Shown here: positions 5,110 through 49,769 of the stretch, piece after piece
Position numbering within the stretch: the first letter of the stretch is position 1
Layout: the number at the start of each line of letters is the position of its first letter
Source: a virus
Taxonomy: Duplodnaviria; Caudoviricetes
Virus record (IMG/VR): IMGVR_UViG_3300031867_000001
Span: 160,001 to 224,000 of that record
DNA length: 64,000 bases
Reading direction: 5' to 3' (one strand)
Program-made: the position numbers and the translations under genes
Notes under the pieces: generated by a model
What the model was told of the DNA's origin: nothing
What the model saw: only the letters and a program-made list of their open reading frames with translations
Databases searched by the model: none

Positions 5110-5149
5110 GTGATATCACCTCCATTCTTACATATTAACAATATATTTA

Positions 5150-14406: not shown

Positions 14407-17400
14407 TCATCCTCCTTCTGAAAAAGTTTTTAAATCATATGCGAATTTATAATCCGACTTCTTTACATTGATACTTGCGATATGATTTGTAAATGTGGAT
14501 ACTGGATATTTCAAATATCCATCTGTGATGACTGCACATTCATCTGTTAATGCACAATACGATTCATCATATTCAATGTTTTCCGATTCACTCGCATTAT
14601 ACAAATATACCGCTTGTGTATATTTCTTACCGAGATTATATTTCAACGTACCAACATAATTCACACAGAACAAACCAGCGCCTGTTGGATCTAAATATAG
14701 ATTCTTATACACACATGGTATCTTTCTGAAATCATATGCTGATACACGAGAATCAGATCCTGGGTATTGAGTGTATGTTGATTTCAAAGAATCGGTTTTC
14801 AAATCATAAATCATAATATAATTTGATTGATAACAATTGATGATCAATGCATTGTTTTCATACATCACAGATGATGGATAATCACCAATTGGTGTGATGA
14901 CTTGTTTGTCACATGCGAGTGTTTCTTCATCATAAATATTGATCAAATTCTTTGTTGCAATATAGAACTTTCCATCATGGTAACAAACAGCCGCATATGT
15001 ACCTTGATATTGCGAAACCCATGTCGTTGTCGCAATCGTAAGATCATGTGCTTCTTTATCAAAGAAGAAAATCTTACATGGATTTGGTGATGGGATTATG
15101 AAGCATACCTTCTTTTTACCAACCGCAAAATCCGTAATCATTCCACTGTATGACGATGGGAAGTTGTGGTATGTGTAAATATTACCAATGATATCAAACA
15201 ATGCAACACGGCTTCCACATATATTGATGATGGTACGATGGTCGTCATCGTACCAATCCATCTTTGTACACCATCCAGTTGTGTTTGTGCTCATTTGATA
15301 ACTCAATATGTTCAACGTTGTTCGATCAACGGTGATGATACGACTGACTTCTCTTGATTGTGTTTGTGCACTACCACCTGCTACGGTTGGTCTCAGATAA
15401 TAATAGTTATCATCAACCAAGAAACATGCCATGCCATAATATGGCGTATCAATTAATAAATTATATCGGATTTTAGCAACTGGATGTATCTGGTTGGTAT
15501 CATAATGAAAACGTTTGATATCAAAATATGCAACACTTGCATCATTGACTTTTTCTATCGTAACACTTCCAATGTATACAGATCGTCCACTCACCGTACA
15601 TGTTGATGTATAACGGGCTGTCGTGTTTTCATCTGTCAAGTTTGGTACAATAAACGTTGGTATGGATTTGGAACCACCAATCTTTGTTGGTAGTAACCAT
15701 TGTGCCGTTTCAATTACACCCGTATCCGGATTGCGATAATCTTCCATCTCACCACGTGGTTTCACCAATGTGCCATAACACGGATTTTCGGGTTCACAAT
15801 CCAAAGATGGTGTAACTTCTTCTTTGGAATAATATCGATAAGATGTTGTTGATGATTTTCCTTGAGTCTCAACCGATGCGGCGTATATCTCACACTTCTG
15901 TTTTGTTGGTTCTGCAATGTCGACATTTGCAACAATTGTAATCAATCCATCCAATCCCTTTTCTGCAGAATACACAACAGTGAATATGGATTCATCTGCA
16001 TCATAATCAATCGCTGCAGATAATACGTTTGCTGCATCCAGATCTGTTTTATATTTTACAGACACACGATTTGGTGTTGATAATAAACCAACATGTGTAG
16101 TGGAATCTGTTTCATCATAAATATACAATGAATAGGATTCCGATAGTCCATTGTCTGATTTAAAGAACGATGTTGGGTGTACATCAAATATTTCTTTTGT
16201 TAATGTGGTTGGTTGTGGTACAATTAATTCCCACATTTGATTTGCTTGATTATATGCTTTATAACCATCATTATCACGTGCAATACATGGCTCGATGATA
16301 TAATTCGCAATGATTTTTGCCATGGATGTGAATAATGGAAGTGTGTTTCCACCAGCATCCGTTGTTGCATTGATCAATTGATATTTTTCTGGGACAAGAT
16401 ATCCAGATACAATATATGATGTTCCGGTATAAACATATCCTGAACCACCTTGTGCTCCATCGATGGTGTGTCTGGATTGGTTGTCGTATACACCTGAACC
16501 ACCATACCATCCGCCTCCACCACCAGCACAACGTTTGTATGTTGATGATTTAACAGAAGCGACACCACCATTTCCAAATGAACCTGCAACTGTTGTATTG
16601 AAATTGGTTGGTGCGGATGATTGTGTTGATGGATCATTAACACCGACATTATTTACAACAATTGAACGTGTTCCACCAGTTAATCCACCACCAGCACCTC
16701 CAGAAGCCAAACCTCCATTTCCTAATGCAGTACCGTTTGCTCCAGCACCACCAGCAACAATCAATCGATGATATAATGTATCACGAACAATTCTGATATC
16801 AGTTGCTCCTCCACCAGGAATTTGGTCTTGTGAATCATATGTCGTGGATGGTAAACCACCACCGTTATATGCCATAATCGGCATGTATTGAATTGCCGTT
16901 GTATGATCATCTACATCAAATGTTGGTGATCCATAATTCCACATGAATCCACATCCACCAACATTCACGTATATATCAACTGGATTATCAACCGTCAATA
17001 CACCTTGTGAAAATCCTCCTCTGGATGAATCGACAAACTTGACAGAACCACCATCTCCACCATAACATTGAACGGTATATTCACCTCTCTTCAATATCAT
17101 AGTTTCTTGTTCACCAACACATGGGAATTCAATCGTATCACCAGTTGAATATGTATCCGTCAATTCACATATGATGATTTCTCCTTCAACGGATTGTCCC
17201 GAACATTGGAAAACATCTGTGAAATAATACTTTGGATCTGGATTATACCCGTCTGGTTTATAAGATGATGCGGTCAATACATAACCGGAACCACCACCGC
17301 CATTGATTGGAGTTGTGTATTTTTTGGATTGCGTTTGGTATGTGAAACCACCATACCAGCCTCCTCCTCCACCACCACAACCTTCATCAATACCAACTGC

Positions 17401-18813
17401 ACCGCCACCTTCATTGCTGGCTTTCCGTACTGGCATTTTCGAATATCCTTCGGTGAATCCAAATGTCTGGTTTGCGATCAATCTACTATTTGGATCAAAC
17501 GCATCATATGTATCCATATAACCGCCATTGATGCCACCACCAATGGATGTAACATATGCGCTCGTTTTAACACATGCTCCACCACCACCAGCAACCATGA
17601 TTCTGGAATCGATGGACGGATGTAATCTTTTATAGTCAGATAATGCGGTTGGTAATACACCTTGGATGGGATCGAGCATTGGCATGTTGGATACTTTGTC
17701 ATACAAATAAATCTTCCCATCATACAGTCGAGTGGTTGGAATATAGTCACGAACAAGTGTTTCTCCTTCATATATTTTACAGCCATAAAACTTCATGAAA
17801 GATGGTTCTGTTACATTTCGGATGTTTGTACCATTACATGCTCCACCAATTGTGAATGGAACGCTGTAAGTTGGAACTGTTCCCGTAGCTCGTTCAATCT
17901 TACCAACTGATGTACCATTCAAGAACCACTCAGCTTTATTAACATCCATTACCAATTTGATTCTTTGATTCCATACAAACTCACCAACGATATTTTGGTT
18001 CGTTGTGGAATTGATTCGGAATGTTGGTTTAAATGAACTTGAAAGAACTGTGTAGAATGAAAACTCGGTATTGCCCGAAGAATTTCTGGAAGTGATTATT
18101 CCAGAACGTGCATACTTTGTAGATCTTCTGTACATCAAAACACAATCCAATTCAACACGTGTATTTTCATTTGGAATATAATCCGTTATGAAATAATTTC
18201 CATCCATTGTTGTTGCTTCATCTCGAATATTATTAAAACCAATAAAATCATAATAATCAAGCTGTTGGAAGATGTGTGTTTCATCATACACACCTGGAAC
18301 TGCATCTGCATCTTCATATTGTACAACTGGATTTGCGGGTGGAATGTATGCCGCCGTTTCTGGATCATTCGTTGGATATTCATTTGGATCATATGCCAAT
18401 AAACGAATATCCGATGCTCCACCACCTCCACCTCCAGGAATGGAGTCATTATCACGTCCAACTCCACCATGTGCTCCGCCATTAAATCCACCGACTTGAT
18501 CAAGTATGGATTTCCCATCATACTTGTAATCACGATCATTTGTCACATCAGCGCCGTTACCACCAACAACTGCATGGAATGTTTCGGTTTCATTTAATGT
18601 GATTACACCATATGAAACACCACCCATTGACAAAGCGACATTCTCATCTTCACCAAATGGTGAATAGACACCGCCTCTGCCACCTTTACAGATAAACAGA
18701 TATGTTCCAGATGGTAGTGTGAATGGCTGATCACCATTCACACATTTAAAGTCATAGATTACTTTCCACATGTTATTCTTATATACAATAATACGATCAT
18801 TCAAATTAATCAC
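14407..18813 (-). CDS. large glycine-rich tail/receptor-binding protein
   Basis: Two Gly-rich repeats (GGGGASDIR, VAGGGG, GGGGGWYGG, GGSGYV), an inserted LamG/concanavalin-like segment and a C-terminal propeller-like region. True start is probably GTG 18813 or TTG 18804 after AAGGAG. Confidence 0.75.
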   Translation of the reverse strand: MINLNDRIIVYKNNMWKVIYDFKCVNGDQPFTLPSGTYLFICKGGRGGVYSPFGEDENVALSMGGVSYGVITLNETETFHAVVGGNGADVTNDRDYKYDGKSILDQVGGFNGGAHGGVGRDNDSIPGGGGGGASDIRLLAYDPNEYPTNDPETAAYIPPANPVVQYEDADAVPGVYDETHIFQQLDYYDFIGFNNIRDEATTMDGNYFITDYIPNENTRVELDCVLMYRRSTKYARSGIITSRNSSGNTEFSFYTVLSSSFKPTFRINSTTNQNIVGEFVWNQRIKLVMDVNKAEWFLNGTSVGKIERATGTVPTYSVPFTIGGACNGTNIRNVTEPSFMKFYGCKIYEGETLVRDYIPTTRLYDGKIYLYDKVSNMPMLDPIQGVLPTALSDYKRLHPSIDSRIMVAGGGGACVKTSAYVTSIGGGINGGYMDTYDAFDPNSRLIANQTFGFTEGYSKMPVRKASNEGGGAVGIDEGCGGGGGGWYGGFTYQTQSKKYTTPINGGGGSGYVLTASSYKPDGYNPDPKYYFTDVFQCSGQSVEGEIIICELTDTYSTGDTIEFPCVGEQETMILKRGEYTVQCYGGDGGSVKFVDSSRGGFSQGVLTVDNPVDIYVNVGGCGFMWNYGSPTFDVDDHTTAIQYMPIMAYNGGGLPSTTYDSQDQIPGGGATDIRIVRDTLYHRLIVAGGAGANGTALGNGGLASGGAGGGLTGGTRSIVVNNVGVNDPSTQSSAPTNFNTTVAGSFGNGGVASVKSSTYKRCAGGGGGWYGGSGVYDNQSRHTIDGAQGGSGYVYTGTSYIVSGYLVPEKYQLINATTDAGGNTLPLFTSMAKIIANYIIEPCIARDNDGYKAYNQANQMWELIVPQPTTLTKEIFDVHPTSFFKSDNGLSESYSLYIYDETDSTTHVGLLSTPNRVSVKYKTDLDAANVLSAAIDYDADESIFTVVYSAEKGLDGLITIVANVDIAEPTKQKCEIYAASVETQGKSSTTSYRYYSKEEVTPSLDCEPENPCYGTLVKPRGEMEDYRNPDTGVIETAQWLLPTKIGGSKSIPTFIVPNLTDENTTARYTSTCTVSGRSVYIGSVTIEKVNDASVAYFDIKRFHYDTNQIHPVAKIRYNLLIDTPYYGMACFLVDDNYYYLRPTVAGGSAQTQSREVSRIITVDRTTLNILSYQMSTNTTGWCTKMDWYDDDHRTIINICGSRVALFDIIGNIYTYHNFPSSYSGMITDFAVGKKKVCFIIPSPNPCKIFFFDKEAHDLTIATTTWVSQYQGTYAAVCYHDGKFYIATKNLINIYDEETLACDKQVITPIGDYPSSVMYENNALIINCYQSNYIMIYDLKTDSLKSTYTQYPGSDSRVSAYDFRKIPCVYKNLYLDPTGAGLFCVNYVGTLKYNLGKKYTQAVYLYNASESENIEYDESYCALTDECAVITDGYLKYPVSTFTNHIASINVKKSDYKFAYDLKTFSEGG

Positions 18814-18892
18814 ACTCCTTATTGTCTCATATATGATATAAGACAAAACGTTACAATTTTGTGACGGGGCATATGCCCCGTCAACATGTAAA

Positions 18893-19300
18893 TTACTCTT
18901 GTGATGAAGGTGTATATGGAGTATCGGATGCACTGTAAATAGCAACCAATGTATCGTCTGGAATAACATTGAGTTGTCGTTGTGTTGGATCTCCATTGAA
19001 TGTAATGACTTGAGATTCAAAGCCAACAACTTTCAAGTTACCATTCTGACAATCCTCTTCAACTGTACGAGACATGTATTCTCTGATGGCTCTGTATACT
19101 GTCTCAGTTGCAGTGTCAACCAACAATGCATTTCTCTTGTACAACTTATTCGATTCATAATCGGCAATAGAAGCATTACCACTTCCACCGCCCAATTCCA
19201 ATTGCTCCAACTTTTCAGTCAATTGTGCCAACAACTCTTGTTGTGTTGCAATTGTTTGAAACAATGTTTGGAAAATCTGATCATCAAACTGTTGAGGCAT
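18893..19300 (-). CDS. hypothetical (probable virion) protein, N-terminus MPQQFDD
   Basis: GGAGGGAG RBS; coiled coil followed by GGGSG linker. Confidence 0.75.
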   Translation of the reverse strand: MPQQFDDQIFQTLFQTIATQQELLAQLTEKLEQLELGGGSGNASIADYESNKLYKRNALLVDTATETVYRAIREYMSRTVEEDCQNGNLKVVGFESQVITFNGDPTQRQLNVIPDDTLVAIYSASDTPYTPSSQE

Positions 19301-19325
19301 TTGTAACTCCCTCCTTTATAAAAAA

Positions 19326-19529
19326 TTAACCTTGCTGTTGTTCCAACCAATAATCTACTCGTGCATTAATTCTTGTTAATAATGAATTAATCGTTCCAAG
19401 CTGTTCAATCGTTGGTTGTAACTCTGTATTCAATTTTTTGATTACAAACGCCCATGTGATAACATTTGCAATATCTCCATCTGGTAATTCAAATGACAAC
19501 GGTTTTGTATCATCAAACTGTTGTGGCAT
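19326..19529 (-). CDS. small hypothetical protein, N-terminus MPQQFDD
   Basis: AGAGGTG RBS upstream of ATG 19529. Confidence 0.65.
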   Translation of the reverse strand: MPQQFDDTKPLSFELPDGDIANVITWAFVIKKLNTELQPTIEQLGTINSLLTRINARVDYWLEQQQG

Positions 19530-19635
19530 ATTGAACACCTCTCTTTCTTCTATAATATTAATGATTCGTTTTTACAACAAAAAAGAACCCCACGTGATTG
19601 TGGGGTTCTTCGGGAATCGCAAGGTTGAACGGTTG

Positions 19636-19842
19636 TTAATCTGGGAGCTTGATAAACAACTCCGAGTATTTAACAGCCCAGCATGCAAAGGCTGTCATAA
19701 CGATGAACCCGAAAGTCCATCCGATTGCTGGGCAATACTCAGGGTCTCCCAGCTTGTACAGAACATAGATGACAGTCGGGATGTGGATGGTCATAACCAT
19801 CCGAGCGATAGCTATGCGCAGTTTTCTAATTTTGTTTTTCAT
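19636..19842 (-). CDS. small two-TM membrane protein
   Basis: AAAGGAGAGG RBS, basic N-terminus and two hydrophobic helices; terminator at 19583-19610. Confidence 0.65.
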   Translation of the reverse strand: MKNKIRKLRIAIARMVMTIHIPTVIYVLYKLGDPEYCPAIGWTFGFIVMTAFACWAVKYSELFIKLPD

Positions 19843-19954
19843 AATGAACCTCTCCTTTTTTACTTTATAAATAACCAATTGAACATTGTGATGAGTTGGT
19901 TTGTTGCGTACTCGTGGAAGCCGCTAACTCTAACTTCCACGTTTATTTGCGATT

Positions 19955-20017
19955 TTACTCGCAAATTATGATACTACCCGTAGTGTCGGGAATATAAATC
20001 TCGCCGATTTCAGTCAT
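19955..20017 (-). CDS. 20-aa micropeptide MTEIGEIYIPDTTGSIIICE (leader module copy 1)
   Basis: AAAGGAGGTG RBS; homologous to 22721-22774 with synonymous substitutions. Confidence 0.7.
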   Translation of the reverse strand: MTEIGEIYIPDTTGSIIICE

Positions 20018-20114
20018 ATTAACACCTCCTTTATACGGAGAATTCCACTCCGTCGATTTCACAATGTTCAATTGGCTTTTGGTAATATATGCGGGGAATA
20101 TTCCCCGCATATAT

Positions 20115-20129
20115 CATATTAATTATATA
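20115..20129 (-). promoter_or_regulatory. putative early phage promoter TATATAATTAATATG
   Basis: Identical 15-mer also at 22837-22851 and 49755-49769, each heading a minus-strand cluster of non-structural genes. Confidence 0.65.
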
Positions 20130-20497
20130 TATTTCAAATTTTAATATTACATAAAATTAATCATGTCTCATGTTTGATGAATATGACTTGTATGGTTTTC
20201 TCAATTCCTTTACGTCAATACCACGTCAGGTATAAGAAATGAAAATGAAATGAAAGTGAAGTAGATTTCTATCATGACCATATTCTCAATAATAAAAAAA
20301 TAAAAATTCACAATCTTGTGTCTTTTTCAGCCGCTAACTGTTTTATTACCATGAGACGGATATGCATGGTCGGAGTATTAGGTTGCATTGTACTAATACT
20401 TCGACGCGGAGTCAATAATGAAGCTCGGTTCTGATCTTCTCTCATATATGGTTTGATTACGGGGGCGTGTGCCCCCGTAATCATTCCCCTCTCATGA

Positions 20498-21244
20498 TTA
20501 GTTTCCATACCACCAAGTCTTGAATGCCGAACCGAAATTGATCGGTCTTTTTACATAGTCATCGCATTCATCACAGCCGGTTGTGATATCAGTATAGATG
20601 ACTCCTTTATTGGTGAATACGTGTTTACCATACTCTTGCTGAAATTCTGCAATAGTTGCATTCTCTCCACCATTAGAAGGAGTGAATGTACAAATCTGAC
20701 ATCTACCATATCCTGGTTTACCCATATTCTGGCAGTATTTGCATGTACGGCAAACGTTTACAGATGTCGGTCTATTGTCGAGAATATCATTGATAACCTC
20801 GAGAATCATGTTGTCCAACTCTCCATCAAACGCATTGTAGATGGCTTGGAATACGATTGACATCTTCTCGGTATCATATCCACCATCATCAACAATCTGA
20901 ATCATTCTGAAGAAGAGCTCTCCCATGAATTCTTTCGATTGTTTTGGATCAAGAGCTATGATGCGTTTTGCAATAGCCGAGTTGTTGATCAACGTTCCAT
21001 ACTTCTTGATGACAAGCCATGAGAACTTACCAGCTTCATTCAACTTATCATCCATATGAATCAGCTGACGATGCGACATGTGAACGCATGTCGGAGATGA
21101 GATCTCGATTGTATCATCGGTTCTGTCAACGATAATAGACAAGTGGGCAGTTGGCTGCCCACTCACACGAATGTTTACATTACCTTTCTTTTCAAAGTCG
21201 TTTAAAGCTTTGATGAAGGAATCGCCGAGTCTTTCATTATTCAT
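20498..21244 (-). CDS. hypothetical protein with C-terminal Cys-rich metal-binding domain
   Basis: CRTCKYC..GRCQIC..GCDECDDY; immediately downstream of the AAA gene. Confidence 0.75.
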   Translation of the reverse strand: MNNERLGDSFIKALNDFEKKGNVNIRVSGQPTAHLSIIVDRTDDTIEISSPTCVHMSHRQLIHMDDKLNEAGKFSWLVIKKYGTLINNSAIAKRIIALDPKQSKEFMGELFFRMIQIVDDGGYDTEKMSIVFQAIYNAFDGELDNMILEVINDILDNRPTSVNVCRTCKYCQNMGKPGYGRCQICTFTPSNGGENATIAEFQQEYGKHVFTNKGVIYTDITTGCDECDDYVKRPINFGSAFKTWWYGN

Positions 21245-21246
21245 TT

Positions 21247-22599
21247 TTATTCTCCTTTCTTATATACGGAAGCGAATTCAACAATCTCTTGTGCGGTTTT
21301 ACCTTTCAACAGTTCCACCTGCAAAGTTGCGAATGTCAAACCTTCTCCAACATGTGTCGGAGTGATACCATTACCAGGGAAATATTTGTCTATAAATTCC
21401 TTTAATGTCTCCGGGCATACGGATGGGATCTCAACACAAATGTCACATCTACCGGGTCTGATCAATGCTGGATCCAACTTATTCTTGTGATTTGTTGTCA
21501 TGATATAGATGATGTTCTTTGGTGATGCAGCTCCATCAAACGTGTTCAAGATTGTTGCCAAACCACGACTGTTGCATTTAATGTTGTCGAAGTCTGTATC
21601 ATCATTATCATCATCATTGATAACTAATCTGGATCGCAGCATGTTAGTTGTTTCATTTAATCCAGAATCGATATCCTCAATACATAATACTCGATAATGT
21701 GATTTTGTTACCGGGTTTAACCTGATATGATTTTTGACGATATTGTCAATATAACGAATATTATCGCCCGAGGTAACATAGAATGCTGCATCAATTTCAT
21801 TCGCAATTGCTTGCGCTATGGAGCTCTTGCCAGTACCAGGATCTGAGTATAATAAGATACCAAAATGGTTGGGGATATTGCTCGACTCATAGAAGTCGTA
21901 TGATTCAACGTACTTCTTCACTGGATCCATGATTTGATGATATATGGAATTCGGAATGAATACGTCTTCGAACGTTCGCAGCTTTCGATTGTCTACAATG
22001 TCAATATTGCTGTAGTCACTGATGACAAAGAACTGTCCATACTCACGCATACGTTCATTGATCTGTAACATCGACAGTTTGTAGCATTCAGCAATAAACA
22101 TCTTAAGTGTCTTGATACACTTGTCAACATTGAGTGTCGACAAGGTCAATTTATACTTAGATTGTCCATCAACATACTCCGGATTGTATGTGGATTTCAG
22201 CAGTATCGGAACGTTGTGATACATGATGATTTTCTGGAAATTGCTGCCTCTACTCCACATCAAATCCTTCTTATACTTGATTGGTTCAAAATCATCAAGA
22301 TGGTTGATCCTTAAGCAATCATCATAGTTATTGAAGAATTTAAACAAACCATATGAGATTTGTTCATATGTGTCTTTGATGGAGATGGTGTGGATGCAGT
22401 TGGACTTTGTTTGTTCAAGCAATGTTTTGATGACTGGTGATAATACTTCTGCAGCAATAACAGTCCCCGCTGATTGGAACATCTTTGCTTTGAGATTCTT
22501 GATCTTTTCCTTCCTCTTGTCGTTGTTCAGTTTGGCATGGTATTTATGCCATTCACGTGGATTTAAACCGGATTGCTTCCTCCGTTTGTTGTTGTTCAT
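21247..22599 (-). CDS. BCS1-like AAA+ ATPase
   Basis: RTFEDVFIP..GILLYSDPGTGKSS (Walker A), CIEDID (Walker B), ILNTFDG, MTTNH..LDPALIRPGRCD (SRH). Confidence 0.85.
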   Translation of the reverse strand: MNNNKRRKQSGLNPREWHKYHAKLNNDKRKEKIKNLKAKMFQSAGTVIAAEVLSPVIKTLLEQTKSNCIHTISIKDTYEQISYGLFKFFNNYDDCLRINHLDDFEPIKYKKDLMWSRGSNFQKIIMYHNVPILLKSTYNPEYVDGQSKYKLTLSTLNVDKCIKTLKMFIAECYKLSMLQINERMREYGQFFVISDYSNIDIVDNRKLRTFEDVFIPNSIYHQIMDPVKKYVESYDFYESSNIPNHFGILLYSDPGTGKSSIAQAIANEIDAAFYVTSGDNIRYIDNIVKNHIRLNPVTKSHYRVLCIEDIDSGLNETTNMLRSRLVINDDDNDDTDFDNIKCNSRGLATILNTFDGAASPKNIIYIMTTNHKNKLDPALIRPGRCDICVEIPSVCPETLKEFIDKYFPGNGITPTHVGEGLTFATLQVELLKGKTAQEIVEFASVYKKGE

Positions 22600-22720
22600 A
22601 TCATTTCTCCTTTACCAATTTACTTATGATTAATCCAAATCTGGGATACTTATGATACGTTTGTTTATTACGGGTACGGAAGGTTGTGGCTTCCGTTTAT
22701 TATTCTTTAATTATTTGCGA

Positions 22721-22774
22721 TTATTCGCAAATAATAATACTACCATCAGTATTAGGAATATAAACTTCTTCCAC
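22721..22774 (-). CDS. 17-aa micropeptide MEEVYIPNTDGSIIICE (leader module copy 2, GTG start)
   Basis: AAAGGAG RBS 8 nt upstream of GTG; homologous to 19955-20017. Confidence 0.7.
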   Translation of the reverse strand: MEEVYIPNTDGSIIICE

Positions 22775-22836
22775 ATTATCAGCTCCTTTATACGGAGAAT
22801 TCCACTCCGTCAATTTCATGAGTATTCCATTTGGAC

Positions 22837-22851
22837 CATATTAATTATATA
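22837..22851 (-). promoter_or_regulatory. putative early phage promoter TATATAATTAATATG
   Basis: Identical 15-mer in three intergenic positions. Confidence 0.65.
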
Positions 22852-22900
22852 AATATAAAAAATACGAATGCGGGGGATATCCCCCGCATTACATATACTT

Positions 22901-23668
22901 TTACTTCTTCCATCCGTATGAATGTGCAATGATCTCTCCCAACACATTGGAGAAATTATTTGATTCGGATCGAGGTCCATTTCTGAACTCAATGCCTATA
23001 TGATAATAACCTTCTTTGTTCTTATATGTCTCTATTACCGAATAATCGGTGTGTTTCTTTAATAACGCAATCAATTCCATCAGCTGTGATTTGTTGTAAC
23101 ACTGGAATGTGTAAACACCATTGTTTTTGGTTTTGTCATTCTGATATACAACATGTGCAATCAAATCTTGCGGAACCAATTCGCGTAACTTATAAATTCT
23201 GGACGTATCAAACCCGGGTTCTTTTTCAAAAGACATCATTGTCAATGTTTTGAATCGATCATGATAATACTCTTGTCTACCGAGTGAATTATCAACTAAG
23301 AATCCATGTAACAAATCCGTGATGTCTTTGATTGTTGTGATATTAGATGCGATTTCTGATTGCAACCTGGATGGTGTGCATGCATAAATATAATCAATCG
23401 CTTCTGATAATCTCAACTTGAGAACAATCGTGTCTTTATCCATGTATTGTGTTTGATACCACAACGTATTTGCATGAAAATGGTTTGTCTCCCAGAACTT
23501 ACGACAGAAGTATTCCCACGGATGATCATACTTCAACGTGACTTCGAATATACCATTGTCATATAATCCTTCGGATCTGTATCCTTTTGAAAGAAGATAT
23601 TTCAACGTATCATCGAATGTTCGAACAATCGGTTCTACCAACAATACTTCCATACTATTACCTCCCAT
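22901..23668 (-). CDS. hypothetical protein
   Basis: 255-aa ORF in an operon with the RNAP and topoisomerase B genes; terminator at 22867-22890. Confidence 0.7.
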   Translation of the reverse strand: MGGNSMEVLLVEPIVRTFDDTLKYLLSKGYRSEGLYDNGIFEVTLKYDHPWEYFCRKFWETNHFHANTLWYQTQYMDKDTIVLKLRLSEAIDYIYACTPSRLQSEIASNITTIKDITDLLHGFLVDNSLGRQEYYHDRFKTLTMMSFEKEPGFDTSRIYKLRELVPQDLIAHVVYQNDKTKNNGVYTFQCYNKSQLMELIALLKKHTDYSVIETYKNKEGYYHIGIEFRNGPRSESNNFSNVLGEIIAHSYGWKK

Positions 23669-23680
23669 TTTGTATGTGTG

Positions 23681-24718
23681 TTAGAATAACTCTAACAGAT
23701 TCATTCCTTGAATGGACAACTTTGACAGTCCATCAATATCCAACTTATCAACCATTTGAGCTTTGGTTTTCTCCAATGCAGATGGCTTGATTAATTTGAC
23801 ATGTGATTCAATATCAATCAATGGATAATTCTTCAGAATGTATTCATGATAAATTGGTTTCAAAATCGGAAGTACGGATTCAACCGCTTTTGGATCGGAT
23901 GGTATTTTATGTTGTTCAACTGCACGAATCAAATCATTTGCATATGCAGTAATACCAAGTGGCTGAATTCCTTGGATTGCACGATCCTTGGAACCAATCA
24001 ACAGCTGTAATGTATTATAGAATACTTTGTTTGCAATAAATGCATCCACCAACTGGTCATCAATCTTGGATACTGCATGAACAAGCATCTGTGGATCGGA
24101 TATCTGTGACAAACCATTTGCAACGAATCTGGAATAAATGACTTTTGTATTCTCCATATAGAAATGGGAAGACATGAATGGATCCGCCGTTACAACGATT
24201 TTATCACGCTTTGGTTCAGACAGTACTTGTGGCAGTACATATGAATCAAACTTATCCGACTTGATCAGATATCCAGATGGTATATACTGCAATACTGTCT
24301 GTACGATCTTGATGGATTCGTCCCAGTAATATACCAACTGTCGGAAATTGTCCTGTTCGAATTTATGTTTGAACGGAATCAAATATGAACGCAATGTATC
24401 ATGTTCACATAATCTTTCAAAGTGATAATCATTTACGATCATAAAGATTCTTGAATTATTCCATTTTCTTGAATAATCTTTCCAATGTTTGAATGTTTGT
24501 AATAAACACAAAACAATGTCAACTTGAACATCCGATGAAAATGGTAATGAATTCATGAACTTTCTTGAAGAAGCCATTGACGACAATAATGAGTTGAGGT
24601 CGATAAAGATATCGACCCCACACACTGCTGGTATATATGTTTCACCCAATGCCATTGTTATGATCTTATAACGCGGCTTCAATTGTCCTGTCAATGGTCC
24701 AATTGAATAACTTCTCAT
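23681..24718 (-). CDS. PIN/5'-3' nuclease-fold-like protein (possibly degenerate)
   Basis: N-terminal IFIDLNSLL, later IVVTADPF and an HhH-like LIGS..IQGIQPLG segment, resembling FEN/T4 RNase H architecture. Confidence 0.45.
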   Translation of the reverse strand: MRSYSIGPLTGQLKPRYKIITMALGETYIPAVCGVDIFIDLNSLLSSMASSRKFMNSLPFSSDVQVDIVLCLLQTFKHWKDYSRKWNNSRIFMIVNDYHFERLCEHDTLRSYLIPFKHKFEQDNFRQLVYYWDESIKIVQTVLQYIPSGYLIKSDKFDSYVLPQVLSEPKRDKIVVTADPFMSSHFYMENTKVIYSRFVANGLSQISDPQMLVHAVSKIDDQLVDAFIANKVFYNTLQLLIGSKDRAIQGIQPLGITAYANDLIRAVEQHKIPSDPKAVESVLPILKPIYHEYILKNYPLIDIESHVKLIKPSALEKTKAQMVDKLDIDGLSKLSIQGMNLLELF

Positions 24719-32479: not shown

Positions 32480-33090
32480 ATATGAAATATAATTTCTTAA
32501 TTTCTAATTCAAAAATTCTACCCATTCAAATCAAATAACGTTTTTATTTGATTTGAATGGAAGGAAGAAAACCTTTAATTGATTCTTTGATTTTAACCCT
32601 TAAGCGCAATCAAGAATCTAATTAAGGTAGATTTTAGAAATAAATTTTTGAAAATTCAATTTATCATGTAGTATTAGCGATTTATTTTTATTAATTTTTG
32701 AAATGGGGTGTTATTTGCTTATACCAATAGATTTTTAAAATCGAAAAAATCGAAAAATCGGCAAATTTCAAAAAATTGATGAAAATTTTCATAAAATGTG
32801 AATATATTTATAAAATATATTATAATTAATTATATAAAATTATTGATGAAATTTATGTCAAAAATGATAAAAATTGATTGATCTCCACCAATCAATTTTT
32901 CAATGTGAAACATGGGAATGTTCAAATTTGATATCAAATTGAAAACGGATATCCAAATTGATGATTCAATCAAAAATGAAGAATGATTGATATGATCAAT
33001 TTGAATTTGTATGTAGATCAATCTCCTCAATTCTTAGCAGTTTTAAGTAATTTATATAAACCCACCCCCGCCCGCGGGCGGGGTGTACCT
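32480..33090. other. long AT-rich non-coding region with nested inverted repeats (candidate origin/packaging site)
   Basis: Perfect 17-bp inverted repeat at 32522-32560, imperfect IR at ~32570-32628, tandem AAAATCG and a GC-rich hairpin at ~33063-33085. Confidence 0.45.
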
Positions 33091-33101
33091 TTATATTATA
33101 A

Positions 33102-33114
33102 GACCAAAATATAA
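33102..33114 (+). promoter_or_regulatory. candidate late promoter GACC-N6-TAA
   Basis: GACCAAAATATAA upstream of the tail sheath gene; near-identical to 29360. Confidence 0.4.
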
Positions 33115-33189
33115 TTGTCCGTGGTATTGTAACCGATTCTGCAGTACCTTAAACAATTAAAAATTCAATGTAAAGGAGATTTAAGGAAT

Positions 33190-36100
33190 ATGATTGATCC
33201 TAAATACAGTTTGAAATATCATTTTCCACATAGTGTTGTCCACATTGTAGACAATTCCATGTACACTGGCGAAACTGTTGTACAGCAAGTGCCTGATCCT
33301 TCACTGTTTTCGACAATCGTCGTAACGGGATTGCCTATGGGTGAAGACAATAAGTTTATCAGTGTTTCACGTTCTGATGTATTGAATACTGGTTTTGGAA
33401 TCAATACTCTGACAACGTCTGATATTAACAAATATTCTCAAGCTGTTGAGTATCCTATGGCTTTACTTCAGCAGAATGTTCCGGTTAAGCTGATGCGTAT
33501 TACACCTGATGATGCAACATACGGTCTGGCTATAATCATGGTTCAGTGGAAGAAGACTGATAAGATCAGAAACAACAAGTTTGAAGTTCGTTTCAGAGTA
33601 TTACCTGAATCTGTAATTAATACCGACTTTGCTGATTTGAGCGAGTACAAGAACGTATCTCGTTTGAATAAAGCAATCATCACCAAGTTCAATAATCGTA
33701 CGGAAGACGATTCCATGTACGAGTTCTCACTGCTTGAGTCTCAGCCGGCTGACTGGTCTACAAACTATAAGAAGTATTATGTATACAATGCAGAGACTCA
33801 GAAGTATGAGAACATTACTGGTGATAAGGCACCGGAGTTTGCTGCTAATACTTATTATACGAAGGAACTCGTATGGAATCAGAGAGTGTTCATGACTGTT
33901 ATTTCTGCAGGACGTGGTTCTGCTTATAACAGAATGAAGTTCTTCATTAATAAGGCTCCCCAGTCTCGTAGACAGACTGCGGTGGCATACAATTTCGGCA
34001 CGATTGATACACTGAACGGTTTGGTTGTTGAGAACTTTGTTGCTGCATTGATCAATAACTCCAACAGTGTACTGACCACTGATGTGATCAACTATACTGC
34101 TACGAAGATTGATACTGTAAACATTGCAGTTGCTAAGAGACTGGAAGGTTCTTCCGTCCTCGTTCCGACTGTCAATGAACAGGCAGTTCAGGAAGTATTT
34201 AATGAATACATGGCTTACTTCAAGTCCAAGAAGGAAGTCAATGATACGGAATATGCAAACTATGGTCAAGCATATGATGAGATCTACAGAACTCTGAATT
34301 CTTCCAAGTTTGATATGCTGTATGGTATGTTCAATTACAAGGAGGCAACATTCAAGCTGCCGTATTACCAGGTAGACATGTATGATACTGAGCTTCCGAA
34401 GCTTCCTGTAAACCAGCTCATCCAGACTCGTGAAGCAAACGCTCCGACCGGTGATACCAATCCTGATTACACCAAGGACGGTCCGGTATACAATACCATC
34501 CAAGGTTATGGTGCGACCGTCTATGATGATGCGGCAACCAATACCAAGACCATTGTTGGTAATGTCGATGTAGCTGCACCGAATCTGGTATTCGATTCTT
34601 ATATCAAGCAGGCAATCTCCCAGACATTCAATGATAACAATGCACCGGCTCCTGGTGACTTGTATCTGAGTGGTGTGAATAACAAGAATCCGTTCTTGAC
34701 GCTTGTAACAGGAATCAATCTGAAGAGTGGCGCTGTATCTACAATGACCTTTACCAAGGTTTACCAGCTTGACAGAAACGGTGCTATTGATAAGACAGTT
34801 CCTTCCAAGCTGATTTCTCGTGCATATTCGAACGTATCTCCGTTGTTGGTTTCTGGTTCTTCTACTGCATCAGGAGACTTCGTCAAGAAGCTGAATGCAA
34901 TCGGTACTTACGGTCTGAACACGGACGATGTCATTGCAGTATCTGGTATTTATGGCGAACAAGGGTCTGCTAATGGTGGTACGGCTGATGAGTATACTCA
35001 GTTCCATCTGTATAAGGTCACGATGAATACTGACGGTGTTGGTATTAAGAATTTAACTCAGTATCCGGCAAACCTGTACAGTGTAATTGACTATAACTCC
35101 AACTATCTCTATGAAAAGGGAGTAGACGCACAGATCTGCAGAAAGTCCAAGTATAATGAGAGTACGAGACCTGCTTCTTATTCTCGTCTTGGTTCTTTGT
35201 GGATCAATGATGTTTCCACTACTGTTAGTCATGGTGGAAATGGCAAGACCGCGGGTACTGCATCATTTGATGGTCATACTGGTGAAGGTCTTGGTACTGC
35301 TCCGTGTTATCTGGCATACTTCGATAAGAGTGGTGAACCTGTATTCTATACAGTATCAGCATATGCAACTTATGTTTCTGCCACTGGTGCTGGCGAATAT
35401 AGTGGTCATACCACGTTCTTCCGTGCATTTACTTCTGTTCCTACTGGAATTGCGGTTAATGTAAATACGGATATTATCGGTGAGCAGTTCGATGTCATGG
35501 TATATGACAGACCTGGTACAAATGACAATGGTTCCGGTCCGATCGGTCCTGTGAATATCGGCAATGATCCCGCTGAATACATCTTCAGATGCAATGTTCA
35601 GTCTGCCGTTAATAACACTTATCGTGTTACTTATGCGGCTGGAATTGATGTTCCTGCGAACTACTATCTGAATGATTATGGCGATATCGTCTATTCTACA
35701 ATCTCTACCTCTTCTTCTGAAGGTGGTATTCCGATTGTATGTGGATCTACTGGATTCTTCGATGATAACACCATTTCCGAATTGGAGTTCAAGTGGAAGT
35801 ATTCCGCACTTCTGGTTCGTGCATTCCGCGGTGAGATCGATCCTCGTATTCTGTCACCGATCCGTGTTCCGGCATTCTACCTGTTTGATGCAGGATTCAA
35901 TACGGTATGTGGCATGAACGTACTTCCGTACACTGTTCCGAATGTAGAGGATGTCATTTATGCATCCACCATCTTCACGGAAGAGGAGAAGGAAGCTGTT
36001 ATGTACGACAAGTCTACAATTGCATCCATCAAGTCTTATGAGGATATTGATGTTAAGCAAGCAATGTATGATTTGATGATTGAGCGTGTATACCAGAGAA

Positions 36101-49558: not shown

Positions 49559-49754
49559 AGTATACTCCTTCTCTCGGTCTATCCCGAGTGTTATTTTAAG
49601 GGAAGCATAGAAAGTTTGTTATTTACTTCCCCATAGGTTTTGAATGTGTCATGATGGTTAACCAATCCATCATGGAATAGATTCAACCCTACCTACTCGC
49701 GGGTTTAGTTTCAACCACATTCACTATTGCGAATATGATTTACTCCTTCTTATT

Positions 49755-49769
49755 CATATTAATTATATA
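49755..49769 (-). promoter_or_regulatory. putative early phage promoter TATATAATTAATATG
   Basis: Third identical copy of the 15-mer. Confidence 0.65.

Follow-up and report, generated by a model that had tools for sequence, protein, structure and literature searches.

A micropeptide gene enclosed in a conserved RNA fold and repeated across a rumen jumbo phage genome

The DNA analysed here, called the window, is a stretch of 64,000 nucleotides (nt) that corresponds to positions 160001-224000 of the IMG/VR record IMGVR_UViG_3300031867_000001, a virus genome of 250,503 bp with direct terminal repeats. The record represents an uncultivated jumbo phage that has no close cultured relatives. The sequencing runs in which it occurs, of DNA and of RNA, are from bovine gut, and the strong Shine-Dalgarno (SD) sequences before its genes suggest a Gram-positive (Bacillota) host. 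On the minus strand of the window, two modules located in front of a small membrane-protein gene and of an AAA-ATPase operon share the same order of parts, built around a very short open reading frame (micro-ORF) within a long RNA stem. An earlier note, made from the letters of the window, had described them as a duplicated structured leader, and all the parts that it had listed were found where it had placed them, on the minus strand. In the lines below, which give window positions, P1 is the long closing stem and P2, P3 and P4 are hairpins lying between its arms.

Module 1
20115-20129, minus strand: core of the promoter-like motif, TATATAATTAATATG, recognised by its exact-copy count; putative promoter
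20085-20114, minus strand: G+C-rich hairpin between the promoter motif and P1, in the same layout as in the 76-kb and 96-kb copies
20059-20075, minus strand: 5' arm of P1, 17 nt, perfect complement of 19875-19891 (fold; covariation of P1 over 21 homologues)
20035-20053, minus strand: P2 hairpin ACGGAG/CUCCGU with loop UGGAAUU (fold, covariation)
20023-20032, minus strand: SD sequence AAAGGAGGUG of the micro-ORF, unpaired in the consensus structure
19955-20017, minus strand: micro-ORF MTEIGEIYIPDTTGSIIICE, ATG start, 20 amino acids, TAA stop (coding comparison)
19945-19966, minus strand: P3 hairpin over the last codons, with the stop codon in the loop (covariation, with G-U pairs)
19913-19941, minus strand: P4 hairpin GUGGAAG/CUUCCAC; P4 is absent in some family members
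19892-19905, minus strand: CA-rich tail AACAAACCAACUCA, conserved and single-stranded in the consensus; ordinary leaders of the phage have similar motifs
19875-19891, minus strand: 3' arm of P1 (fold, covariation)
19636-19842, minus strand: gene after module 1, a predicted membrane protein of 68 amino acids without family match; a terminator at 19582-19611 comes next

Module 2
22867-22890, minus strand: terminator-like hairpin that belongs to the upstream gene and lies just ahead of the promoter motif
22837-22851, minus strand: promoter-like 15-mer
22816-22836, minus strand: 5' arm of P1 (fold, covariation)
22792-22810, minus strand: P2 hairpin
22780-22789, minus strand: SD sequence of the micro-ORF
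22721-22774, minus strand: micro-ORF, GTG start, M/VEEVYIPNTDGSIIICE, 17 amino acids, TAA stop (coding comparison)
22711-22734, minus strand: P3 hairpin, stop codon in the loop (fold, covariation)
22676-22696, minus strand: P4 hairpin ACGGAAG/CUUCCGU
22656-22665, minus strand: CA-rich tail AACAAACGUA
22633-22655, minus strand: 3' arm of P1 (fold, covariation)
21247-22599, minus strand: gene after module 2, an AAA ATPase of 450 amino acids (PF00004)
20498-21244 and 20308-20508, minus strand: ORF of 248 amino acids and possible ORF of 66 amino acids after the AAA ATPase, neither with a family match

The two modules can be aligned from P2 to P3, ribosome-binding site and ORF included, and again in the tail; the arms of the long stem differ. 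They also differ in the order of their upstream parts, since a G+C-rich hairpin follows the 15-mer in module 1 and precedes it in module 2. A 29-mer shared by both (20026-20054 and 22783-22811) occurs exactly twice in the window and found zero matches in shuffled sequences. Against shuffled sequence, the folds score z = -6.7 for module 1 and z = -5.0 for module 2.

The duplication is part of a larger family. Seven such cassettes are present in this genome. Pattern searches and six-frame scans of the whole genome located further copies at 32.7, 67.5, 76.8 and 96.8 kb; a seventh lies at 66.6 kb and is diverged. When a covariance model was derived from six of the copies, it retrieved exactly these seven in this genome (G000) and five in its relative IMGVR_UViG_2061766007_000342 (G001; 257.9 kb, about 73% nucleotide identity over 152 kb aligned), with no other credible match. 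About ten more copies were obtained with a back-translated peptide pattern, from eight rumen metagenome stretches and one more IMG/VR contig. In bacterial and archaeal genomes (185,579 species), the first back-translated pattern gave no match; a looser pattern gave two, which were rejected as chance matches inside unrelated sequence. The known copies are confined to a small clade of rumen jumbo phages, and no true copy outside it was found in the sets searched.

Conservation of the peptide is the first line of evidence for a gene. The main type has the consensus M-x-E-[IV]-Y-I-P-[DN]-T-x-G-[SVC]-I-I-I-C-[E/D/N] over 18 distinct copies. Within the 15-codon core of these copies, all 15 third positions are variable, compared with seven first and four second positions. 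The ratio of the nonsynonymous to the synonymous proportion of changes (pN/pS) is 0.15 and the corresponding Jukes-Cantor ratio of rates (dN/dS) is 0.06. These copies separated long ago: within the ORF, dS is about 1.8. ORF lengths are 13, 16, 17 and 20 codons, and the differences are always of whole codons; in every copy an ATG or GTG start lies at normal distance from a ribosome-binding site. Selection on the peptide, already proposed from the two modules, is confirmed by both ratios and by the variability of all third positions. Judged from these comparisons, the micro-ORF is a coding unit under purifying selection at the amino-acid level.

Two further peptide types belong to the family. 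The second, MGEIITGEEIFLG, is identical in two phages despite five synonymous changes and a different stop codon. The third, represented by MNELGEIYVPDTSGQEIICG and MNEIGEVFVPNTNGQDVFCG, is barely alignable at the DNA level. It keeps G-E-[IV]-[YF]-V-P-[DN]-T-x-G-Q-[ED]-[IV]-[IF]-C-G and shares with the main type the pattern E-x-[YF]-x-P-[DN]-T-x-G...C. Two to three Ile codons and a Cys codon stand in most copies, with two Ile in one copy and Val-Val-Ile in another, and the MGEIITGEEIFLG type lacks the Ile run. The 17-residue peptide contains four acidic residues, no basic one and no membrane-spanning stretch. In all three types, two short beta-branched hydrophobic runs surround a T-(x)-G turn between acidic ends, and the peptide is probably a small beta-hairpin.

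A second product in the +1 frame was considered and rejected. Many copies leave this frame open, but the encoded amino acids show no conservation, and its openness is a by-product of composition. In module 2, an ATG 2 nt upstream of the GTG (window 22774-22776, minus strand) opens the +1 frame into a hydrophobic 21-mer, MWKKFIFLILMVVLLFANNRK, that is not conserved elsewhere; it could compete for initiation in that copy.

One copy has a TAA at codon 3 (MG*IYIPDTDGVIVICD) and was found in two strain variants (L037:3986-4169 and L039:2202-2385, both minus strand). It has lost P4, keeps P1, P2 and P3 intact and stands before an intact gene. Its positional orthologue in L041 has an intact ORF ending in ...IICN, and the lineage of the nonsense copy appears to be degenerating.

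The second line of evidence is the RNA fold. In all copies P1, a stem of 17-23 bp with few mismatches, joins both ends of a domain of 160-240 nt. A short AAAU joiner leads from P1 to P2, which is usually ACGGAG/CUCCGU or ACGGAU/AUCCGU and is replaced by an A-U stem in the 39.1-kb copy of G001; the loop UGGAA(U/A)U is the same across all forms of the stem. The near-perfect ribosome-binding site of the micro-ORF (AAAGGAGGUGAU) is unpaired in the consensus structure. The last codons form the 5' arm of P3, whose loop holds the stop codon, and an A-rich linker comes next. P4 (CGGAAG/CUUCCG) is often present and is followed by the conserved single-stranded CA-rich tail and the 3' arm of P1. The tail motif A(U/C)AAAC-N-AAC..AUCA is kept in all peptide types, and each module contains four GGA motifs.

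Covariation was assessed on 20 distinct sequences, whose alignment was fitted to the model: standard pairs fill 92.5% of pair cells and 30 of the 40 pairs are changed on both sides. Among 500 shuffles, none reached the observed value on four of five measures and a single one did on the fifth, and sliding the partner by 1-3 columns left a pairing of only 29-44%. Exact complementary arms of 12-18 nt, found independently in each copy, agree with the covariation. The frequent G-U pairs in P3 indicate that the structure exists on the sense RNA strand and not as DNA. The covarying structure is single and static, with no conserved alternative pairing. As read from the comparison of about 25 copies, the micro-ORF is embedded in a conserved, strand-specific RNA fold. 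Both the ORF and the covariation, whose absence from homologues the earlier note had named as fatal to its proposal, are kept in the homologues.

On the opposite strand (window 22676-22696, plus strand), P4 and the A-rich tract that precedes it read as a textbook intrinsic terminator, likewise in other copies. Such a terminator might keep antisense transcripts out of the micro-ORF; a search of the opposite strand of the modules revealed no promoter motif.

The sites at which the cassettes lie are marked by the 15-mer. The earlier note was right to place it in both modules, at 20115-20129 and 22837-22851, but it is not specific to them: 13 exact copies exist genome-wide, and about 22 with up to two mismatches. 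Nearly all are intergenic and oriented with the next gene or structured RNA. The 15-mer is part of a conserved motif of about 35 bp with two upstream variants, ATTGAAATTTGAAATA and ATTTTTTATATT. Sites of the motif in the window include 5131-5145, 20115-20129, 22837-22851 and 49755-49769, and three of the exact copies lie in the window. The motif is probably the main promoter class of the phage. Most of its sites head ordinary short leaders, which means that the 15-mer marks where a cassette is located and not what a cassette is. A hairpin followed by the 15-mer is seen at 22837-22890 and at the 32-kb copy.

The third exact 15-mer of the window (49755-49769) heads a different structured leader of about 190 nt (49570-49769, minus strand), in which GAATGTG pairs at long range with CACATTC and a GGGAAG/CTTCCC hairpin has AACAAAC in the loop. 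No micro-ORF of the cassette family was found in this leader, and the covariance model gives no match to it.

The genes behind the cassettes are mutually unrelated and comprise the AAA ATPase, the 68-residue membrane protein, an operon that encodes an NAD-dependent DNA ligase and several genes to which no function could be assigned. Of the seven copies in this genome, five stand immediately before a gene and close behind the promoter motif. The relative retains the motif, without any cassette, in the leaders of its orthologues of the AAA-ATPase operon, the membrane-protein gene and the 96-kb gene. The 76-kb copy stands at a synteny breakpoint with respect to the relative, and syntenic copies are retained between the two phages, which are 73% identical. 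The 67-kb copy runs straight into a strong terminator, and so, at the same position in the relative and in a rumen contig, do two cassettes arranged in tandem. A strict leader, as had been supposed, is not supported, as two loci end in a terminator without a downstream gene. Between either micro-ORF of the window and the next gene, no terminator-like site was found on the sense strand; the next ribosome-binding site is at least 88 nt from the micro-ORF stop, beyond P4 and the 3' arm of P1, and unpaired in the consensus structure.

Around the stand-alone copy, G000 66644-67684 (plus strand) contains in order the diverged MNELGEIYVPDTSGQEIICG copy, a gene of unknown function encoding 152 amino acids, the stand-alone copy and the terminator, at the place where the relative has two cassettes in tandem. 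One transcription unit appears to be bracketed there by two cassettes.

Other long inverted repeats with a span of about 200 nt were searched in both phages, and none in this phage encloses a credible SD-led small ORF. A 40-codon ORF at 16.1 kb was rejected as it lies inside coding sequence. The sole exception is in the relative, at the site orthologous to that of module 1 (G001 178622-178818, minus strand), where the promoter motif is followed by a 14-bp closing stem (GTATACAGAGAATC and its complement) around a 33-codon ORF. The product of this ORF starts with MKITNQMPSIL and is without homologue in this phage. Clamped small-ORF cassettes may be exchangeable at the module 1 site.

Module 1 was found in three bovine-gut metatranscriptome runs from three studies, with shares of 1.00, 0.65 and 0.45. 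On 3.6 kb, the contigs of these RNA runs cover 19850-20095, 19890-20076 and 19889-20064 at a depth of 4-16, as well as fragments of sister copies. Hardly any of the coding sequence on either side is represented in the RNA runs, whereas coverage is even along the whole stretch in a DNA run. The contrast hints, modestly and from contigs that give neither strand nor true ends, at an RNA of the module that is more abundant than the surrounding mRNA. The contig ends were considered as RNA ends and rejected, because the DNA run breaks at nearly the same places; such shared breaks point to repeat-induced breaks in the assembly graph, and no processing sites are deduced from them. Module 2 is uncovered in the RNA runs, which is not evidence of its absence.

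The explanation that we favour, at a probability of about 0.5, is that the cassette works as a stable and self-contained micro-mRNA from which a micropeptide acting in trans is overproduced. The cassette would usually be the first unit behind a strong phage promoter, and would also work inside or at the end of operons. P1 would insulate the fold and probably act as a processing or stability element of the host RNase III type, so that a stable micro-mRNA accumulates. The near-perfect, unpaired ribosome-binding site would drive efficient translation of the micro-ORF, and five to seven gene copies would yield large amounts of peptide. The acidic peptide, probably a beta-hairpin, would act in trans on a target of the host or the phage. 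A more specific picture is put forward more tentatively, namely an RNA-caged, promoter-hopping micro-gene whose excised, hyper-stable 200-nt micro-mRNA would flood the cell with an acidic beta-hairpin 17-mer directed at a host or phage target, the two sister peptides being made likewise.

Action in trans is preferred because of the stand-alone copies that end in terminators, the orthologous leaders that are free of the cassette and the tolerated nonsense copy, which would be tolerable if other copies supply the peptide. A reading as a ribosomally synthesised and post-translationally modified peptide was dropped, the phage having no radical SAM gene; other peptide-modifying families were not searched.

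Several observations weigh against this explanation. A simple peptide gene does not obviously need its stop codon in a conserved hairpin loop. Cleavage by RNase III is proposed from the length of the stem alone, and no RNase III gene was found in the phage. The RNA runs are represented by contigs, whose ends possibly reflect the assembly-graph breaks described above. Finally, most copies are placed as leaders, with the base of P1 about 28-35 nt before the next start codon in most of them, and the sequence from P1 to the next ribosome-binding site is shared within copy subgroups, which fits a cis-acting expression unit too.

Such a unit is the best of the competing explanations, though we consider it rather unlikely. 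The cassette would then be a translated leader, a portable 5' expression or stability unit, in which a ribosome on the strong site, perhaps held at the stop by the nascent peptide, would cooperate with the P1 clamp to shield the downstream mRNA from 5' decay or to set how strongly it is translated. Selection on the peptide would then stem from its action inside the ribosome exit tunnel. The roughly constant distance from the base of P1 to the start codon and the stop codon in the loop of a covarying hairpin are the main evidence for it; the near-perfect SD sequence and the five copies that stand directly before a gene and just behind the promoter motif add to these. Arrest peptides also show conservation at the peptide level, and 5' stabilisers with bound or stalled ribosomes, such as the ermC leader and the cryIIIA STAB-SD, exist in Firmicutes. 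On the contrary, the stand-alone and tandem copies end in terminators, the downstream ribosome-binding site lies far off and pairs with no part of the module, and the orthologous genes of the relative manage without the cassette. Moreover, the nonsense copy persists before an intact gene in two strain variants, and the three peptide types differ in their C-terminal residues.

A dual-function RNA, or one that is mainly an RNA effector with translation as a secondary matter, is distinctly less likely. It could be a sponge or target of a CsrA-type GGA-binding regulator through the P2 loop and the ribosome-binding site, which are 17 nt apart, or a base-pairing small RNA (sRNA) acting through the CA-rich tail. 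The UGGAA(U/A)U loop that is kept even on the A-U stem of the 39.1-kb copy of G001, the four GGA motifs, the conservation of the single-stranded tail in all types and the intact fold of the nonsense copy are in its favour, and the RNA of the module is prominent in the metatranscriptome contigs. Yet no constraint is as strong or as general as that on the amino-acid sequence, and P2 and P4 are missing from several members that keep the peptide. No CsrA gene was found in the phage, and the CsrA geometry is no more than a resemblance.

A neutral or selfish repeat, either a recent duplicate of an untranslated region or a small mobile element with inverted-repeat ends, is very improbable. It would account for the inverted-repeat ends, for the degenerating copy with its nonsense codon and lost P4, and for a copy number and positions that differ between related phages, including the copy at a synteny breakpoint. 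However, old and diverged copies (dS of about 1.8) still keep the peptide, and the arms differ yet stay complementary with G-U pairs, which fits RNA structure and not transposase sites. Filled and empty sites show neither a target-site duplication nor a shared leader remnant, and syntenic copies are retained at 73% identity.

Two of the mechanisms that the earlier note had suggested, an Ile/Cys attenuator of the ilv/thr type and an adaptor peptide for the BCS1-like AAA ATPase, are largely refuted: despite the Ile and Cys codons just before the stop over a hairpin and the one copy ahead of the AAA-ATPase operon, the unrelated and non-biosynthetic downstream genes, the cassette-free leader of the AAA ATPase in the relative, the lack of any sense-strand terminator, antiterminator or conserved alternative pairing, and an Ile run that varies and is missing in the MGEIITGEEIFLG type speak against an ilv/thr-type attenuator and a role tied to the ATPase.

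The cassette resembles several known systems and coincides with none of those compared here. Dual-function sRNAs with a small ORF include RNAIII/delta-haemolysin of S. aureus, SR1/SR1P of B. subtilis and Spot 42/SpfP (15 amino acids) of E. coli. The likeness lies in a short, structured and abundant transcript (abundance being here a hint from contigs) with an internal small ORF, in which both fold and peptide are conserved. In the cassette, the tail and the P2 loop are candidate base-pairing regions. Unlike these sRNAs, the cassette has five to seven dispersed copies per genome, mostly fused to the 5' ends of operons, and is clamped as a unit by one long stem; no sequence or Rfam relationship links them.

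Regulatory leader peptides comprise those of attenuators (thr, ilv, his, trp) and arrest peptides (ErmCL, TnaC, SecM, MifM). Like the cassette, they place a very short ORF, served by its own ribosome-binding site, ahead of genes; the peptide is conserved and the stop lies inside an RNA structure. By contrast, the cassette has no alternative terminator or anti-SD structure, its downstream ribosome-binding site is far and unpaired, and it occurs in stand-alone copies and before unrelated genes. With arrest peptides in particular it shares the conservation of the peptide and not of the codons (the pN/pS given above), but it has no sequestered downstream ribosome-binding site or terminator that could be blocked.

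Type I toxin mRNAs with a 5'-3' long-distance interaction, such as hok, aapA1 and fst, are also mRNAs of small peptides whose ends are paired in a long stem, and are multi-copy in some genomes. Here the peptide is acidic and without a membrane-spanning segment, and the ribosome-binding site is exposed instead of buried. No antisense gene was found, though P4 reads as an opposite-strand terminator.

In phage polycistronic RNAs, RNase III processing stems are known from the T7 early sites, SP82 early RNA and the lambda N leader. They too are near-perfect duplexes of about two helical turns that bracket a transcript segment, comparable to the 17-23 bp of P1, where cleavage is putative; the stem of the cassette encloses a whole micro-gene and is not placed between genes.

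In microcin C operons, the mccA minigene is a first cistron of seven codons followed by a hairpin, which results in an abundant short transcript stabilised by ribosomes. The tiny first cistron behind a promoter, the hairpin at the stop and a short RNA that exceeds the operon mRNA (here a hint from contigs) recall the cassette. The differences are that no modifying enzymes are encoded downstream here, that the gene is multi-copy and that the C-terminal residue, Asn in mccA, is given here as Glu or Gly (the main-type consensus admits E/D/N).

Promoter-early stem-loops (PeSL) of T4-type phages are repeated units of a promoter and a stem-loop, at which related phages gain, lose and exchange small genetic units (Arbiol et al. 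2010, PMC2839356). In the same way, the cassettes come and go at sites with a shared promoter motif, as in the three orthologous leaders that keep the motif and lack the cassette, and a repeated promoter-like motif, of putative activity, is found with an adjacent terminator-like hairpin. Nevertheless, PeSL are DNA-level repeats without a conserved micro-ORF or a 200-nt RNA fold, whereas the repeat described here itself encodes a selected peptide (PMC2839356).

A scan of 19000-24000 against Rfam at E up to 1 gave four chance-level matches (E >= 0.07), none of which reached half of the gathering score of its family or lay on the sense strand of a module. No match to the peptide strings was found in the literature searched, general searches returned no description of such an element, and a paper on candidate structured RNAs in phages mentions neither small ORFs nor jumbo phages. 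This is consistent with the opinion of the earlier note that the system is not a described one. Each element is of a known kind, be it a structured RNA with a small ORF, a leader peptide or a promoter cassette. What the sources searched do not describe is the combination: a clamped micro-gene for an acidic 17-mer, with three peptide subtypes and five to seven promoter-hopping copies.

Some neighbouring genes deserve mention. When 22 neighbouring proteins were searched against Pfam and PHROGs, the only matches were to the AAA ATPase, the NAD-dependent DNA ligase and a glycine-rich domain. The latter is in an ORF of 1540 amino acids (window 14407-19029, minus strand), downstream of the module 1 transcription unit, in which the ALK/LTK glycine-rich domain (PF12810, E = 9e-62) matches three stretches; this ORF, unusual for a phage, may encode a fibre or surface protein. 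Two adjacent small proteins (window 18893-19300, 135 amino acids, and 19326-19529, 67 amino acids; minus strand) have a common N-terminus MPQQFDD and are both conserved in the relative. Behind the 32-kb cassette, G000 32858-33962 (plus strand) encodes several small, paralogous and very basic proteins that start with MKYRVRKKRMNRKSR, MNWRMKKKRRIRF and MNHRIKKKRSCLH and have no family match.

The cassette is a case with an unusually clean comparative proof of both a coding ORF and a selected RNA fold. Gene callers miss peptides of fewer than 20 residues, and to our knowledge few phage examples of such peptides have been described. A 17-mer peptide and a 200-nt RNA also make a cheap and well-defined experimental target. 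If the action in cis were true, the cassette would be a natural portable 5' unit for expression and stability, probably for Gram-positive hosts. More broadly, the family could give insight into how rumen jumbo phages use micro-genes, and into whether clamped micro-mRNAs are a general route to very small proteins.

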